Below, one piece after another: positions 1,363 to 36,652 of a stretch of 36,652 nucleotides of DNA (positions are counted from its first letter, which is position 1; the number at the start of each line of letters is the position of its first letter). Source of the DNA: a virus; IMG/VR virus record IMGVR_UViG_3300013382_000003, positions 1 through 36,652 of that record; one strand, 5' to 3'. The position numbers and the translations under genes are program-made. A model generated the notes under the pieces. The model worked only from the letters and a program-made list of their open reading frames with translations. It was not told the origin of the DNA and did not search any database.

Positions 1363-1434
1363 AGCATCCTCCAAGGTTAGGTTAACCCATGGAGGAATCC
1401 AACGTAAAGGAAAAAGGGGCAAACGCCCCTTCCA

Positions 1435-1986
1435 TTATGCGATGGCCGAATATTGGGCCACTTTCGTCTCGGTACCCCACTCATAACTGGTAAAATCGAC
1501 TACGGTCGCCCCGTCGGACGCTTTATTCGGCCAGCGGCGGTATTCCCACAATTTCCCGCTTTTCCAGGAATAGACGAACTCATCATGGGGGCACATCATG
1601 GTGAACAGGGTGAAGCTCGAATAGGGAATCCCTTCCTCGATTTCGCCCGTGGCCGTTCCATCGGTGTCCGAGCCTTCGTAGAAGGGGTAAGTGTCAATGT
1701 CGATGAGGCCGTTGCCGGCTGAAAAGGTCTTGAAGCCTATGAAAAGGGCCTTGCTTCCGTCGGTGAGGGCGACTTCCACGGCGTTCTTCGGATATTCGAG
1801 CTTGCTTGTGACGAAAGAATCCTTTGTTCCCACGGTCTCATCTGCCACGATGTCCTTGAAATTGAAGTACACATAGTCCAGTCTCGCCGTGAACGAACCG
1901 AACGTCCCCTGCTTCTTCCCGCATCCCGCAAGCCTGACAAGCGAGGCGAAAAGCATGGACAGCGCCGTTGTTTTCCTCTTTCCCAT
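1435..1986 (-). CDS. Phage-encoded lipoprotein
   Basis: The N-terminus MGKRKTTALSMLFASLVRLAGCGKK has a basic n-region, a hydrophobic core and an LAGC lipobox. Confidence 0.75.
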   Translation of the reverse strand: MGKRKTTALSMLFASLVRLAGCGKKQGTFGSFTARLDYVYFNFKDIVADETVGTKDSFVTSKLEYPKNAVEVALTDGSKALFIGFKTFSAGNGLIDIDTYPFYEGSDTDGTATGEIEEGIPYSSFTLFTMMCPHDEFVYSWKSGKLWEYRRWPNKASDGATVVDFTSYEWGTETKVAQYSAIA

Positions 1987-2021: not shown

Positions 2022-2480
2022 TCAGAATGTGCCCTTCTCCTTGTTCCCCGCGTCGAGTGCGCGTGCCATCGCACGGTCGTACTCCACGGAGGAGATGAGC
2101 TTCCCCTTCCTTTCGTACAGCCACTGGCAGAGCGTCCACTGGGGAAAGCCGTCCTTGGCGGGAAGCCACCTCTCGAACGTCCCGCGCACCATCATGAGGA
2201 CTTCCTCGTCGCCGTTCGCAAGGACGTTCCAGCGCCTTGTGATCCCGAAGGTCGAATAGAGGAACTCCTCCGCCTGCGTTCTAGTGAACGGACGGTCCTC
2301 CTTCCACGCAAGGCGCCAGGACTGGGGGGAATCGCGCCCGCTCCGCCCCTTCTTCCGCTCCCCCCTTATCTTCCTCGTATGGGCCATCCCCCGCCTTGTG
2401 AAGGCAAGGAACAGCCCGACGGCGAGGAGGACAAGCGATATGCCGAAGAGGACCCAGAACGCGGCTACCATAGCCCCCAT
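2022..2480 (-). CDS. N-terminally membrane-anchored hypothetical protein
   Basis: A hydrophobic helix AAFWVLFGISLVLLAVGLFLAF is followed by a basic stretch. The gene is in series with its neighbours. Confidence 0.6.
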   Translation of the reverse strand: MGAMVAAFWVLFGISLVLLAVGLFLAFTRRGMAHTRKIRGERKKGRSGRDSPQSWRLAWKEDRPFTRTQAEEFLYSTFGITRRWNVLANGDEEVLMMVRGTFERWLPAKDGFPQWTLCQWLYERKGKLISSVEYDRAMARALDAGNKEKGTF

Positions 2481-3256
2481 TCCGCGAACTTCTCGAATCC
2501 GCCCGCCGCCTTCATGTAGTTCCGCGCAAGGGAGACGATTTCGGAATACGGTCTGCCGTCTACCGTGTCGTCCCCGATGGCACAGCAGAGTTCAACCGGC
2601 TTGCCCCTCTTCTGCGCCTTGAGGAACGCATAGATGTTCACGCTTACGTCCGCCTTGGACAGGTCCTTGCCGTGGAGCCCTCCGCCGGTCACGGAGTCCG
2701 CCATGTCCGAGCCGAGCTTACGGTTCGTGGCGCCGGTGTCGACGTCGGTGCCGCCGGTCCAGTATCCGAGGGGGTTGATCTCGGCATCGGGGAATTCCTT
2801 CCGGAGCTCCTTTTCCGTGGCATGGCTCTGGCAGATGATGAGGCGCTTCCCCAGGTCAAGGATGTACTTCCCGTCATAGGGATGCTCCGAATAGATTCCG
2901 CGTGCGATGGCGGACAGGCGCTTCTGTTCGATGGTAAGGGGCATCCCCTTGAAGATGCCGTTGTCCCCGCACCGGAGGCCGTGCGCCTGGTTCTCCGCAA
3001 GCTCGCCGTCCTGCGGGACGGGGACATAGTCCACGCCTCCCGCCCCTATCCCCGAGATTCGTTCCACGGCCCTGCACACGGCATCGGCAGGCACCCTCAC
3101 GGACGATTCCGCTATGATGTGGCACTTCCCGTGGCCTATGAGCACCTCAACGGCGATTCTCGGATCCTTCTCCCTCTTATACGCGAGGTCGACCACCGCC
3201 CCCGCGATTCTGTCCGCCACCTTGTCAGGATGGCTAGGATTCACCTTCTCGATCAT
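2465..3256 (-). CDS. metK: Minimal S-adenosylmethionine synthetase (methionine adenosyltransferase, MetK-like), 263 aa
   Basis: ORF 2465..3400 trimmed to MIEKVNPSHPDKVADRIAG. Its ATG overlaps the upstream stop (ATGA at 3253-3256) and follows GGAAAGGAAAG. MAT motifs present: HPDKVADRI, CGDNGIFKG (cf. GAGDQG), NPLGYWTGGTDVDTGATNRK, and GGGLHGKDLSKADVS (cf. GGGAFSGKDxSKVDRS). Confidence 0.85.
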   Translation of the reverse strand: MIEKVNPSHPDKVADRIAGAVVDLAYKREKDPRIAVEVLIGHGKCHIIAESSVRVPADAVCRAVERISGIGAGGVDYVPVPQDGELAENQAHGLRCGDNGIFKGMPLTIEQKRLSAIARGIYSEHPYDGKYILDLGKRLIICQSHATEKELRKEFPDAEINPLGYWTGGTDVDTGATNRKLGSDMADSVTGGGLHGKDLSKADVSVNIYAFLKAQKRGKPVELCCAIGDDTVDGRPYSEIVSLARNYMKAAGGFEKFAEWGLW

Positions 3257-4068
3257 TCTTCTCTTTCCTTTCCGCGGGGCATGTACTTCCCCGCAAGTTC
3301 CGCCTTCCTTCCCGTCAGCCCTTCCCACCGCTCGACGATCACGGCGCAGTAGCCCTCGTCGAGCTCCATCCTTCTGCATCTTCTTCCCGTCTCCTCGCAC
3401 GCCAGCAGGGTCGATCCCCCTCCCCCGAAGAGGTCGAGTACCGTGTCCCCCTGATAGGTGGTGTTCTCGATGGCCCTCTTCGCCAGCTTCACCGGCTTCT
3501 GGGTCGGATGCCTGTACTGCTCCGGGCTGTCAGGGTATATGTCCCAGACCGCATCGATCCGTCCCCCGGTGAGGCAGTGCCCGCAGTGGCTTACGAGGAT
3601 TAGCTCGTAGGTGTTCTTGAATGTCCGCTTAAGGTCACCGAGCCCCCCGTTCAGCCCGCATTTGTTCCAGACCACCCTGTTGGTCAGTCTGTAGTATCTT
3701 TCGAAATACGGAAGCCACATGTCAAGCACCTTCCACGTGGTGCAGACGAACACGAACCCGTCCACGCATTCCTTTGCGACGGGCAGGAAGTCCAGCAGCG
3801 TATCGTCGTTCTCTATCTTCCGGAAGCGGTGGCATGTCCTACCAGTCGGTGTTTTCCGATTTGCATTGTTCGACTGGTAGGACATGCCGTATGGCGGATC
3901 GGTGAACAGCCTCCCGCATTTCTCCCCCCCCGTCAGGTACCTTACCTGCCCCATGTCGGTCGAGTCCCCGCACATGAGGAGGTGGCTTCCAAGCTTCCAC
4001 AGCTCGCCTCTTTTCGGCTTTGGATGCTCCTCGCGGAACAGCATCCTCTGGCCTTCTTCCCCTCTCAT
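3253..4068 (-). CDS. DNA methyltransferase, beta class (N6-adenine or N4-cytosine)
   Basis: FTDPPYGMSY (motif IV) lies upstream of LDLFGGGGSTLLACEETGR (motif I), with an N-terminal LLMCGDSTD. Start set at 4068, after the upstream stop at 4088; 4044 is also possible. Confidence 0.85.
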   Translation of the reverse strand: MRGEEGQRMLFREEHPKPKRGELWKLGSHLLMCGDSTDMGQVRYLTGGEKCGRLFTDPPYGMSYQSNNANRKTPTGRTCHRFRKIENDDTLLDFLPVAKECVDGFVFVCTTWKVLDMWLPYFERYYRLTNRVVWNKCGLNGGLGDLKRTFKNTYELILVSHCGHCLTGGRIDAVWDIYPDSPEQYRHPTQKPVKLAKRAIENTTYQGDTVLDLFGGGGSTLLACEETGRRCRRMELDEGYCAVIVERWEGLTGRKAELAGKYMPRGKEREE

Positions 4069-4087
4069 TCCCTGCGTTCCCCCATTG

Positions 4088-4324
4088 TCACTCCCACCCC
4101 ATCCGCCAGACCGTGACAACGCCGGAGGCCGTGTCATAGGCACACTGCCACCCGTTAAGGTCGAGGCGGAAATGCTCGGCGACCTTCTTTATGTCCGCGG
4201 CACGCTCCCCGCTCACCTCCCCGGAGAAGCGCCTTCCGCTTCCGTTCCGGGCAAGGAACTCGGAGAGGAAGCCGATGAACTCGACGTCCTTCTTCGAAGT
4301 GTAGTATTTTTTCGGCATTCCCAT
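4088..4324 (-). CDS. Hypothetical protein (78 aa)
   Basis: ORF with a GAAAGGAAAGG SD upstream of the ATG at 4324. Confidence 0.55.
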   Translation of the reverse strand: MGMPKKYYTSKKDVEFIGFLSEFLARNGSGRRFSGEVSGERAADIKKVAEHFRLDLNGWQCAYDTASGVVTVWRMGWE

Positions 4325-4339
4325 GATGTCCTTTCCTTT

Positions 4340-5048
4340 CTAGAACAGCTTCATCTGTTCGTCCTCCCCTTCCGCCGTCTTCCCGATGCGCTCCCTTGAC
4401 GCCTTCCAGAACCGCTCCTCGATCTCGAAGCCGAGGAAGTGCCGTCCGAGCTTCTTCGCGGCGGCGCATGTCGTCCCGCTTCCGGAGAAGGGGTCAAGCA
4501 CGACCCCCCCCCGCATGGGAGGAATTGCGGATGAGGTTCTCTATGATGTCCTGGGGCTTTGCCGTGGGATGGCCCCATTTGTCCTTCTCGAGCATCCCCT
4601 TCTTCAGGTACACGGTTCTCCCTGTCTTGTAGGATATTTCCGGGTTGACCCCGGTCTCCCAGAAGTAGAGGCAGTATTCCTTGTCCTTGAGGTAGTGTCC
4701 ATTGCAGAACGGCGTGGGATTCTCCTTCGCCCATATAATCCTTTCCCAGTTGCATCCCCTTCCCTTCACGAAGTAGGTCAGGTAGTCGTATATCTGTTCC
4801 TTGTTGCACCAGACGTAGATGTTGGTCTTCTTCATCACTCTCACAAGCTCGTCCAGTATCGACATGTCGAAGCCCCGGCATATGTCCTTCATCATGGAGT
4901 ACATCTTCCGCTGTCCGAAGATTCCTGCGTCCTTCAGCACGCTCCCGAACTGATACGGAGGGTCGGTCACGATGAGGTCGACGGACTTGTCTGGCACCTC
5001 CTTGATCAGCCTGTAGGAGTCCCCGAGGACTATCGTGTCAATGTCCAT
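4340..5048 (-). pseudogene. Second beta-class DNA methyltransferase, interrupted by one extra base in a G9 tract (frameshift; possibly phase-variable or a sequencing error)
   Basis: The N-terminal part (from the Met at 5048: VTDPPYQFGS ... [14 protein letters not shown]) ends as HAGGGRA-stop directly after nine G on the coding strand. The adjacent frame continues [32 protein letters not shown] to the stop at 4340-4342. Removing one G gives an intact 235-aa enzyme with motif IV then motif I. Confidence 0.8.
4504..4512 (-). repeat. Homopolymer G9 (C9 on the plus strand) at the methyltransferase frameshift point
   Basis: Counted directly: cgaCCCCCCCCCgcatg. Confidence 0.95.
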
Positions 5049-13500: not shown

Positions 13501-13806
13501 ATGAAAGAAAAGCTGAAGAAGGGAAACTACTACATTGCCGACATCGGAACGGACGACATGATCGCTGCAGGATTAGGGGAAAAGTTCCTCGTGCGTTATC
13601 TCGGCCCTGCCCATCCAGGGGCCGAACTCGTTCCCCATCCTCGACGGCTTCCTGACGATTCCGGATTTATCCTTGTGGACGTCTATGTCCCAAGCTACAC
13701 CGGACTGACCGACGGCCACTGGGAAAAGAAGCAGACTATTTACGAAGACGACATCATAGAACCGGTCGAGCTTTCCGATGCTTTAAAGGCAAGGAAGGAT
13801 GATTAG
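13501..13806 (+). CDS. Hypothetical protein (101 aa) in the lysogeny module
   Basis: ORF between the repressor and the integrase, overlapping the integrase start by 8 nt. Confidence 0.55.
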   Translation: MKEKLKKGNYYIADIGTDDMIAAGLGEKFLVRYLGPAHPGAELVPHPRRLPDDSGFILVDVYVPSYTGLTDGHWEKKQTIYEDDIIEPVELSDALKARKDD

Positions 13807-15025
13807 AAAGCGCGACCGCCAGAAGCCTTGGCAGGTCATTGTCGGCACACAAGGAACGGACGGAAAAAGAAAAAGACTGTGCAAGTCCTTTGCCACCTAT
13901 GCCGAGGCAAAGGAAGCAGAGGGAATAAGGCTTGGGACGCGCGATGCGGCCACAGACAGGACAAATACGTCAAAGATAGGCGTTGAAAGTCTTATCAATG
14001 AGTTCTGTACCAAAAGAAACAGCGAAATCCGGATAACCACAATCGATAATTATAAACGGGCCTTCAGACTCTACATCGTACCGTTCTTCCATGGGAGGGA
14101 CAGGCGGAAGTGTGACAAGGCGACCTTTATCAAATGGAAAGAATATATTGAGGCAAGCGGTCTAGGTTTCACATCACGCAAGAACAAATTCAATGCACTG
14201 CACAGCCTTCTTTCCTTTGCCTATAAGGAATTCGGATTGGATTTGTGCAAATACCTCGACATGGCTGGGACGTTCAAAAAGGATCCTAATGCGAGGGAAA
14301 AGGAAGAGGAACTCCATTTCTGGGATCCCTATCAGTTTTCCGCCTTTATCTCCCAGTTCAGAAAGGATTGCGAGAAAATCTCCCCATATTCCTCGAATTA
14401 CATGTCCTACTGGGGATCATATGTAAGGCTGAACATCCTTTTCTTTGCCGGACTGAGAAAAGGCGAGGCAAACGCATTGACGCCGGAGGACTTCTTCCAG
14501 CGCCGAGGAGTCTACTATCTCAATATCACGAAATCATGCTCCCACAAGGTTCAGGGGATGGACTGGGTAACGACCCCTCCGAAGAACAAGACAAGCCGTC
14601 GCTGTGTGCCGATTCCCAAGACCCTTGTGGACATCATAAAGGAACACCTCTATACACGGCTGAACAAGCTAGGAAGCCCTGCCCTGTTCCTATGCGGAGG
14701 ACTTTCCCATATTCCGGACTCGACCCTGATTGCCCTGAAGGACAATGTGGAAAAGGAAAGCGGGGTGCCCCATATCCGGGTGCACGACCTTAGACACTCC
14801 TATGTGTCGGTCCTCATCAATTCAGGGACCCCGGTGACCACGATTTCTAAGCTGGTGGGACATTCGTCAACCGAAATCACCTGGAAGGTCTATTCCCATC
14901 TATACCCTGATACCCTTGCCAGCGCAGTCACGGCGTTCGACAACGAAGTATGCGGAAATTCATTTTCAACAGATTCCCATATTCTGGGCGCCATTTGGGC
15001 GCCAAAAAACAAAAAAGGGATTTAA
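13799..15025 (+). CDS. int: Tyrosine integrase (phage integrase family)
   Basis: C-terminal catalytic pattern GLRKGEANAL ... HDLRHSYVSVLINSG ... LVGHSSTEITWKVYSHL (R...HxxR...H...Y). Confidence 0.9.
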   Translation: MIRKRDRQKPWQVIVGTQGTDGKRKRLCKSFATYAEAKEAEGIRLGTRDAATDRTNTSKIGVESLINEFCTKRNSEIRITTIDNYKRAFRLYIVPFFHGRDRRKCDKATFIKWKEYIEASGLGFTSRKNKFNALHSLLSFAYKEFGLDLCKYLDMAGTFKKDPNAREKEEELHFWDPYQFSAFISQFRKDCEKISPYSSNYMSYWGSYVRLNILFFAGLRKGEANALTPEDFFQRRGVYYLNITKSCSHKVQGMDWVTTPPKNKTSRRCVPIPKTLVDIIKEHLYTRLNKLGSPALFLCGGLSHIPDSTLIALKDNVEKESGVPHIRVHDLRHSYVSVLINSGTPVTTISKLVGHSSTEITWKVYSHLYPDTLASAVTAFDNEVCGNSFSTDSHILGAIWAPKNKKGI

Positions 15026-35806: not shown

Positions 35807-36451
35807 ATGGGAAGGGATAGGAATAAAGGCTATCGGGGATGGAGAAGGTCGGCAAGAGCGGCCGAGGCCAGGGACAATGGGGAGGCTCCGTTGTCCCATT
35901 GGACCAAGGCGGCCATCATCGCCGCCATCGCCGACGCCTTCGGCGACGACGTCGCCGGCCAGGCGTCGCTGGCCAATAGGTCCAGCCTCCGCCGTTGGAG
36001 GCTCGAAAAATCAAGCTGGCATCACAGGGGATCCTATTGCCGGCCGGTCGACTTCTACCGGCTGGCCGAGGTAGACCAGCCGGAGGCTGTCAGCCTGATC
36101 GGCCAGGCCATCGCCGAGACGGCCGCCGATAAGAAAAACAAAGAAAAGGAAGAAAAGGAGAAGGCAAGGGTCACCTATTGGCGGATCGCCGCCAACGAAT
36201 GGCAGGGATCGCGGCGTAACGGCCGTTATGTTTCGCGTACTTATTTCGGAATCACGGTAGGCCTCTGGTCGACGAAGGCGGCCATCGTCGCCGGTGACGG
36301 CGATAGGACCGTTAAAGACCTATCAGGCCGCCATTGCCAGGGGATAATGATCCCGACCAGATCGGCCTTCGTCCAAGAGGTCAAAAAGTTCTTAAAAATC
36401 GATAAAATAGGCAATTTTTCTAAAAAAATCGATGAAATTCTTAAAAAATAG
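35807..36451 (+). CDS. Orphan plus-strand ORF with strong GC3 codon bias (hypothetical; probable true start TTG at 35891)
   Basis: Clear 3-base periodicity (GCC ATC ATC GCC GCC ATC GCC GAC GCC TTC GGC GAC GAC GTC...). GGGGAGG lies 5 nt before the TTG at 35891. No family recognised. Confidence 0.6.
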   Translation: MGRDRNKGYRGWRRSARAAEARDNGEAPLSHWTKAAIIAAIADAFGDDVAGQASLANRSSLRRWRLEKSSWHHRGSYCRPVDFYRLAEVDQPEAVSLIGQAIAETAADKKNKEKEEKEKARVTYWRIAANEWQGSRRNGRYVSRTYFGITVGLWSTKAAIVAGDGDRTVKDLSGRHCQGIMIPTRSAFVQEVKKFLKIDKIGNFSKKIDEILKK

Positions 36452-36480
36452 GAGAAAATCAAAATGAAAAACCGAGACCC

Positions 36481-36652
36481 GCCAGGCCGGGCTTAGCCCC
36501 GGTAAATTTTCGGCGCGGAGACGCTTGACCAGTGAGCTGTTACGCATTCTTTGAATGATGGCTGCCTCTGAGCCAACATCCTGGCTGTCTTAGCGTTTCC
36601 ACATCCTTACACACTCAGCGTGGACTTAGGGACCTTTGTCGGCGGTCTGGGC
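36481..36652 (-). rRNA. 3' end of the same 23S rRNA-like fragment (duplicate copy across the junction)
   Basis: Repeat copy of 1-162 plus about 10 nt. rRNA similarity stops just after GGGGCTAAGC, and the conserved ACCGAAGC that follows in real 23S is absent. On the minus strand a GGTTTTTCATTTT tract follows. Confidence 0.8.
36491..36652. repeat. Terminal direct repeat, right copy
   Basis: Identical to 1-162; this is either an assembly overlap of a circular molecule or a true DTR. Confidence 0.97.

Follow-up and report, generated by a model that had tools for sequence, protein, structure and literature searches.

A short, apparently catalytically complete S-adenosylmethionine synthetase encoded beside DNA methyltransferase genes in a gut phage

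Why should a phage carry, directly beside a DNA methyltransferase gene, a gene resembling that for the enzyme which makes the methyl donor, and can a protein some 120 residues shorter than its bacterial counterpart still be that enzyme? The question was raised by the IMG/VR virus record IMGVR_UViG_3300013382_000003, of which positions 1 to 36,652 (36,652 nucleotides) were analysed as a single window. The gene in question encodes a 263-residue protein related to methionine adenosyltransferase (MAT), the S-adenosylmethionine (SAM) synthetase called MetK in bacteria. From its predicted fold, its aligned residues and the purifying selection on its family, the protein is a shortened, apparently catalytically complete MAT. 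Its role is probably to give the phage its own control of SAM supply, free of host feedback, so that methylation of the phage DNA is complete by the time it is packaged; the probability of this reading was estimated at about 0.62.

The 263-residue open reading frame (ORF; 3256..2465, minus strand) opens with MIEKVNPSHPDK and its product begins with MIEKVNPSHPDKVADRIAG. The MAT motifs HPDK, CGDNG, DGK, GG..D.G.TNRK and GGGLHGKDLSKAD are present, and the length is 68% of the 384 residues of Escherichia coli MetK, in agreement with the initial annotation of the window, which had described a MAT-like protein of about two thirds the length of MetK. The three Pfam MAT domains that it named as a check were recovered in part: PF00438 (N-terminal domain) scored 42.2 bits over residues 3–71 against a cut-off of 33.1 and matched 23 of 23 family members, but PF02773 (C-terminal domain) reached 11.4 bits against a cut-off of 25, with matches in 11 of the 23 members (best E = 2.1e-10), and PF02772 (central domain) went undetected at E <= 10, both in the window protein and in all 23 members. 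The metK equivalog model TIGR01034 scored 48.5 bits, below its cut-off of 309.4. The match to PHROG 1569 was full-length (residues 1–262, 226.8 bits, E = 9.6e-67).

Searches of the PDB returned MATs and nothing else. With phmmer, two stretches of the window protein were aligned, around the HPDK motif and around GG..D.G.T.RK...GG..GKD.SK.D; a profile of the family extended the coverage to residues 2–233. The family was aligned with hhalign to a canonical MAT profile made from six sequences, E. coli MetK and five full-length MATs from phage records, with a probability of 99.4 and E = 2.4e-21. A monomer model was built with AlphaFold2 from 23 diverse relatives (predicted local distance difference test score, pLDDT, 95.1; predicted template-modelling score, pTM, 0.93). 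It consists of three beta-alpha-beta-beta-alpha-beta units and includes strands and helices corresponding to the central domain that Pfam did not detect. The top 50 Foldseek matches of this model in the PDB were all MATs, the best being E. coli MetK (PDB entry 7loo; E = 1.6e-19, TMq 0.72, TMt 0.52). Both the profile searches and the predicted structure thus point to the MAT fold, as had been suggested from the motifs. A fold search of BFVD returned nothing at E <= 0.001, that is, no viral structural relatives. None of the matched MAT chains in the PDB has fewer than 368 aligned residues, so that no short MAT is among the solved structures; if active, the window protein would be a very small MAT (263 residues against at least 368 aligned residues in the solved MATs found), useful for enzyme engineering and for learning which parts of MetK are dispensable.

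Compared with bacterial MetK (E. coli, 384 residues; PDB entries 7loo, 1xra and 7ll3), the short MAT shows the same three-domain fold and the same aligned catalytic and ligand residues at about 20% identity. It is approximately 120 residues shorter, all three domains being trimmed; loops and hairpin tips are lost throughout and the C-terminal stretch of about 38 residues is absent, but no whole domain is gone, which answers the earlier query as to which loops or domains were missing. Further differences are that it is phage-borne, that it has no riboswitch and that an invariant Trp replaces Phe230. The active-site loops are shortened, including the region that matches the gating loop at E. coli residues 98–108.

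The E. coli residues listed in Table 1 (mature numbering), which we take to be the catalytic and ligand residues of MetK, were mapped onto the window protein by hhalign against the canonical profile. All of them were aligned, so that the anticipated set of catalytic residues was found, and each position is conserved in 34–41 of 41 full-length representatives of 50%-identity clusters; at the Phe230 position the Trp is invariant throughout the short family. The placement of the DGK motif depended on the method. MAFFT, hhalign against E. coli MetK alone and BLASTP set it on E. coli DDGK(174–176), a solution that was dropped on topology grounds, and the six-sequence profile set it on PDAK (Asp163/Lys165). 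The latter is favoured because the strand order of the model and the richer profile agree. The median pairwise ratio of nonsynonymous to synonymous substitution rates (dN/dS) within the family is 0.14. Together with the residue conservation, this value argues that the family is under selection and is probably an active enzyme rather than a remnant.

The arrangement of the genes was then considered. All genes of the MAT and methyltransferase region lie on the minus strand. The ATG of the MAT gene (3256–3254) shares bases with the TGA of the gene for methyltransferase 1 (3255–3253) as ATGA, with a purine-rich stretch, GGAAAGGAAAGAG, close upstream of the MAT start. The overlap proposed in the initial annotation was confirmed by the ORF coordinates, and the upstream partner was confirmed as a beta-class enzyme by its PF01555 match and by the order of its DPPY and FGGGGST motifs. 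From methyltransferase 2 to a 183-residue ORF downstream of the MAT gene, the genes overlap or are separated by short gaps only; no internal terminator was found in this unit and, reading in the sense direction, a terminator-like hairpin is first met at 1433–1411. The module stands at the end of the early/replication operon, in the order methyltransferase to MAT, and its methyltransferases carry no ParB domain. An Rfam scan of the window detected no SAM riboswitch. Host metK and methionine genes in Firmicutes are as a rule regulated by S-box riboswitches.

On the proposed mechanism, the short MAT would most likely dimerize as other MATs do, its active sites lying between the two subunits; it would convert ATP and methionine into SAM, hydrolysis of the tripolyphosphate following. 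It would be expressed in one transcription unit with an orphan beta-class methyltransferase whose stop its start overlaps, and a copy lacking a riboswitch leader would escape the feedback acting on the host metK. The extra SAM would allow newly replicated phage DNA to be fully methylated ahead of packaging.

The genomic neighbourhoods of relatives were examined to see what the MAT accompanies. A DNA methyltransferase adjoins the MAT gene or lies within approximately 0.6 kb of it in about 95% of viral loci (~79 of 83), almost invariably on the same strand and immediately downstream; one seeming exception has a C5 methylase upstream. The typical neighbour is a ParB-fused N6/N4 methyltransferase of about 417 residues, often followed by a C5 methylase. 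Longer phage MATs (~350 residues) occupy the same genomic niche, beside HNH and methyltransferase genes. Among 80 species genomes, an adjoining methyltransferase was found in 53 and one within 3 kb in six more (59/80). In 16 further loci no methyltransferase was detected with the BLAST seeds. Five of these, in as many bacterial genomes, have a radical-SAM/SPASM enzyme (~460–480 residues) directly downstream of the MAT homologue instead; the other neighbours include the radical-SAM activase NrdG, two C5 methylases and a class-I SAM methyltransferase, and in one genome the short MAT follows NrdD/NrdG. These loci suggest that the family also serves SAM-dependent operons other than those of phages. 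That SAM consumers of several unrelated classes adjoin the gene is the best argument from context for a protein making SAM for its neighbours, and such neighbours, DNA methyltransferases and radical-SAM enzymes alike, support a dedicated supply.

The same neighbourhoods bear on the possibility that the MAT is a general metabolic booster, supplying SAM to the whole cell for polyamines, radical-SAM enzymes and RNA or protein methylation, its adjacency to methyltransferases reflecting no more than a shared slot for accessory genes. In virome surveys metK is indeed counted as an auxiliary metabolic gene of a generic kind (PMC12180181), and some members of the family stand beside radical-SAM enzymes, PAPS reductase or amidoligase, or in tail modules lacking a methyltransferase. 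Against a booster stand the near-constant methyltransferase linkage of the viral loci, often with overlapping genes, the overlap of start and stop in the window itself and the fact that the non-methyltransferase neighbours are also mostly SAM consumers; we regard it as possible but unlikely. A role in anti-defence or host manipulation, in which the MAT co-assembles with or titrates the host MetK, or replenishes SAM that a host defence has removed, and thereby alters SAM-dependent immunity (type I/III restriction, BREX), is given a low probability. It has a precedent in the T3 SAM lyase, which cleaves SAM and inhibits MetK in a restriction-modification/BREX context (https://doi.org/10.1101/2023.02.27.530186; PDB entry 8bb1). 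The lyase is likewise a phage protein acting on the host SAM pool, but its fold is unrelated and its logic opposite, since T3 destroys SAM and the window phage appears to make it. Mixed oligomers are conceivable because the MAT active site spans subunits; an inhibitor would have no need of the full conserved catalytic set, and the linked SAM-consuming enzymes would suffer from a loss of SAM. The initial annotation had also mentioned the countering of SAM-dependent or SAM-depleting defences, a suggestion that found no support: PADLOC matched neither the MAT nor the small ORFs around it, and no SAM-depleting defence was found in the literature searched.

Only a slim chance is likewise given to an altered chemistry, in which the product would be a SAM analogue, or the substrate another nucleotide or amino acid, to serve a non-methyl DNA modification. 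The shortened active-site loops and the change of Phe230 to an invariant Trp would fit it, as would the crystals of E. coli MetK with non-cognate nucleotides (PDB entries 7lo2, 7ll3 and 7lnn), but the methionine- and phosphate-binding residues are all conserved and the partners are ordinary N6/N4 and C5 methyltransferases. That the gene is a functionless, decaying remnant of a captured metK is scarcely credible: the protein is one third shorter than MetK and falls under the equivalog threshold, and methyltransferase 2 close by is clearly decaying, but more than 8000 clusters keep a constant length of about 260 residues, selection is purifying (dN/dS 0.14), the predicted fold is compact and of high confidence and 18 independently sampled contigs encode the identical protein. 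A dedicated SAM supply for methylation is therefore preferred, with several points weighing against it. PF02772 is recognized in 0 of 23 members and PF02773 in 11 of 23, and TIGR01034 lies far under its cut-off; the sequence-only aligners set DGK on DDGK(174–176) until the richer canonical profile was used; and the ~120 missing residues, including the C-terminal tail, could affect oligomerization or activity. In three viral loci the MAT lies inside a tail module with no methyltransferase within 5 kb. That SAM is limiting for phage methylation is itself an assumption, and neither for the long nor for the short phage MATs did the literature searched yield a biochemical, activity or structural study.

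The concept of a phage SAM supply is already known. The literature found on phage MetK consisted of virome surveys, a report on Helicobacter pylori prophage integration beside the host metK (irrelevant here) and the annotation paper on Phi1207.3. In the latter, Orf29 of this Streptococcus pyogenes prophage was identified as a SAM synthetase and suggested to be the source of methyl donor for a nearby methylase (Iannelli et al., 2014; PMC4260502); it is a long SAM synthetase, encoded close to a C5 methylase and to a DNA methylase fused to ParB. In a gut-phage study of 2025, metK accounted for 8.6% of the auxiliary metabolic genes, behind only dcm (PMC12180181), which places it among the top-ranked phage auxiliary genes. 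A 2026 preprint stated that SAM synthetase was unreported in viruses, which shows how scant the attention paid to the viral enzyme has been. The supply role put forward in the initial annotation is thus strengthened by the conserved methyltransferase linkage, but it is not new, having been proposed in 2014, and the module is commonplace. If the reading is right, metK in gut-phage catalogues would stand for the SAM-providing side of phage methylation modules and not for general host metabolism.

The long phage MATs contain all three Pfam MAT domains and are ~47% identical to E. coli MetK; the short family, at ~260 residues, is separate from them. Its closest described members are ORF19 of Gardnerella phage vB_Gva_AB1, Javan105_0035 of a Streptococcus phage and CDS0062 of Terrisporobacter phage TPDSL_ph1, which are 64–68% identical to the window protein and of the same length. 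In these phages the MAT also lies directly beside a DNA methyltransferase, but in the order terS, MAT, ParB-fused methyltransferase (in some cases followed by a C5 methyltransferase) near the packaging genes, whereas the window has methyltransferase then MAT and no ParB.

More than 8000 protein clusters at 90% identity match the short MAT, nearly all of 260–275 residues; at 50% identity, 1364 clusters match at E <= 0.001 and 213 at E <= 1e-30. Relatives occur on at least 541 IMG/VR contigs and in at least 361 species-representative genomes, chiefly of Bacillota (Oscillospiraceae, Lachnospiraceae, Enterococcus and Erysipelotrichaceae). The window gene is a typical member of this very common, under-annotated phage family, and few accessory gene pairs are commoner than MAT with methyltransferase in the phages of gut Bacillota. 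PHROG 1569 is annotated as 'unknown function', and 29 phage records with the short MAT almost always give 'hypothetical protein'; the same holds for nearly all of 25 annotated phage records at 55% identity or more, where vB_Gva_AB1 alone gives S-adenosylmethionine synthetase. Assigning a function to this mostly hypothetical family would therefore re-annotate thousands of genes. The longer MATs (~345–350 residues; 139 phage records, 90 of them Streptococcus prophages) are mostly annotated as SAM synthetase. Three of ~349 residues, at 2998–4047 in Clostridium phage NatCom_42228 and in PV036445 and PV036448, are labelled 'peptidase', probably a mis-annotation of full-length phage MATs. A fusion of MAT and methyltransferase was sought among the longer family matches and none was found, the long proteins either containing insertions or being joined to terS or capsid genes, joins that are probably gene-calling artefacts.

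Methyltransferase 1 is encoded by an intact ORF. It matches PF01555 (N6_N4_Mtase) with 77.6 bits and PADLOC MTase_II with E = 1.8e-37, and its DPPY motif precedes FGGGGST (motif IV before motif I), the order of a beta-class enzyme; gene calls on sibling contigs give 263 or 271 residues. The siblings are eight contigs of ~99% identity from other samples. The window contains only two homopolymers of seven or more bases in 36.6 kb, one inside each methyltransferase gene, and differences in the length of these G tracts switch the methyltransferase reading frames. In methyltransferase 1 the siblings have 8, 8, 9, 7, 8, 8 and 8 G, the eighth contig (L091) ending before the tract. This variation could be phase variation or a homopolymer assembly error. 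A second kind of variation concerns an inverted repeat just past DPPY (Table 1), the 22 bp spacer of which is exactly inverted in three of the eight siblings (L085, L086 and L088). Both orientations are in frame and exchange eight residues, NNANRKTP for VFSDLHCS; this flip of a hairpin loop within the coding region might alter the activity or specificity of the methyltransferase. A stronger form of the proposal would make the ~260-residue family a minimal MAT, under neither riboswitch nor feedback control, with which mobile elements provide SAM privately to any SAM-consuming enzyme that they bring along. In this phage its translation would depend, by way of the ATGA overlap, on the switching methyltransferase, and the two would form a switchable epigenetic module: poly-G slippage and the in-frame inversion would switch the methyltransferase, and SAM synthesis and methylation would go on and off together. 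We consider it quite unlikely in this full form.

Methyltransferase 2 is in a different state. The initial annotation had placed a second beta-class gene two genes upstream of the MAT, and a PF01555 gene does start at 5048, but it is split by a frameshift at its G9 tract; deletion of one G would restore an intact methyltransferase of 236 residues. The siblings have 9, 9, 8, 9, 9 and 8 G at this tract, one contig ending within it (at least 8) and one stopping short. No intact copy was present in the window or in any of the eight related contigs, each being 5'-truncated or frameshifted. The window and L089 have the full-length gene, but nine G put the frame out. Four siblings (L085, L086, L088 and L090) have a recombination breakpoint close to window position 4762, with an unrelated 136-residue ORF in place of the DPPY-bearing 5' part and a 163-residue remnant left over. 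A simple on/off gene was considered and rejected, as the siblings with eight G are 5'-truncated by recombination and decay is at least as likely. Methyltransferase 2 looks like a decaying gene, and the proposed coupling of the MAT to two methyltransferases was not upheld.

Table 1. Features of the MAT and methyltransferase region (window positions) and residues of the window MAT with their E. coli MetK equivalents.
Feature	Position	Strand	Remarks
Short MAT-like SAM synthetase gene	2465..3256	minus	263 aa; stop TAG 2467-2465; from ORF, PF00438, PHROG 1569, AlphaFold2, Foldseek, hhalign
Methyltransferase 1, intact beta-class N6/N4 DNA methyltransferase	3253..4068	minus	271 aa (ATG 4068) or 263 aa (ATG 4044)
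G8 tract in methyltransferase 1	3924..3931	minus	Codons ~38-46; 7, 8 or 9 G among near-identical contigs
Inverted repeat in methyltransferase 1	3831..3888	minus	Perfect 18-bp arms 3871-3888 and 3831-3848; 22-bp spacer 3849-3870; just past DPPY
ORF between the methyltransferases	4088..4324	minus	78 aa; no family match; kept on sibling contigs
Methyltransferase 2, C-terminal fragment	4340..4516	minus	58 aa with FSGSGTT motif I, other frame; PF01555 positions 182-219
Methyltransferase 2, N-terminal fragment	4494..5048	minus	184 aa with DPPY; PF01555 profile positions 1-182; premature stop past G9
G9 tract breaking methyltransferase 2	4504..4512	minus	C9 on plus strand; 8 or 9 G on siblings
149-aa ORF	2022..2471	minus	N-terminal hydrophobic helix; ATG (2471) overlaps MAT stop as ATGGTAG
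183-aa ORF, final gene of operon	1435..1986	minus	No match in family searches
Terminator-like hairpin and T run	1411..1433	minus	Likely end of methyltransferase/MAT transcription unit
MAT residue	H9		E. coli MetK H14
MAT residue	D11		E. coli MetK D16
MAT residue	K12		E. coli MetK K17
MAT residue	E50		E. coli MetK E55
MAT residue	Q82		E. coli MetK Q98
MAT residue	D98		E. coli MetK D118
MAT residues	D128 / K130		E. coli MetK D163 / K165
MAT residue	W166		E. coli MetK F230
MAT residue	D173		E. coli MetK D238
MAT residues	R179 / K180		E. coli MetK R244 / K245
MAT residue	K197		E. coli MetK K265
MAT residue	K201		E. coli MetK K269
MAT residue	D203		E. coli MetK D271

Downstream of the MAT gene, the 149-residue ORF gave no match in Pfam, PHROGs or PADLOC; it is kept on all sibling contigs.

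The window phage is a temperate, siphovirus-like gut phage. Its gene set includes an integrase (13799–15025, plus strand), Erf, an exonuclease, SSB, RusA and an HNH–terS–TerL group. Positions 1–162 are repeated exactly at 36491–36652, and this terminal direct repeat of 162 bp shows that the contig closes into a circle of 36,490 bp. A nucleotide search of phage genomes gave the MAT gene as the sole match, at 74% identity, and no close reference phage.

Together with the variation in the methyltransferase genes, one further feature of this genome may be more unusual than the MAT itself. A mosaic of about 500 nucleotides resembling 23S rRNA spans positions 1–419 and 36408–36652 (minus strand), within a stretch of ~1.4 kb (about 1–1430) that has no convincing ORF. 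Its best-conserved part corresponds to bacterial large-subunit (LSU) rRNA positions ~1029–1235, which we take to be H42–H44, the L11-binding GTPase-associated centre. The sequence is bordered by phage genes and is found on independent contigs as well (L085, 9086–9280; L087, 4709–4903; L091, 3530–4486). Possible explanations are a fragment captured from a host and an rRNA mimic.

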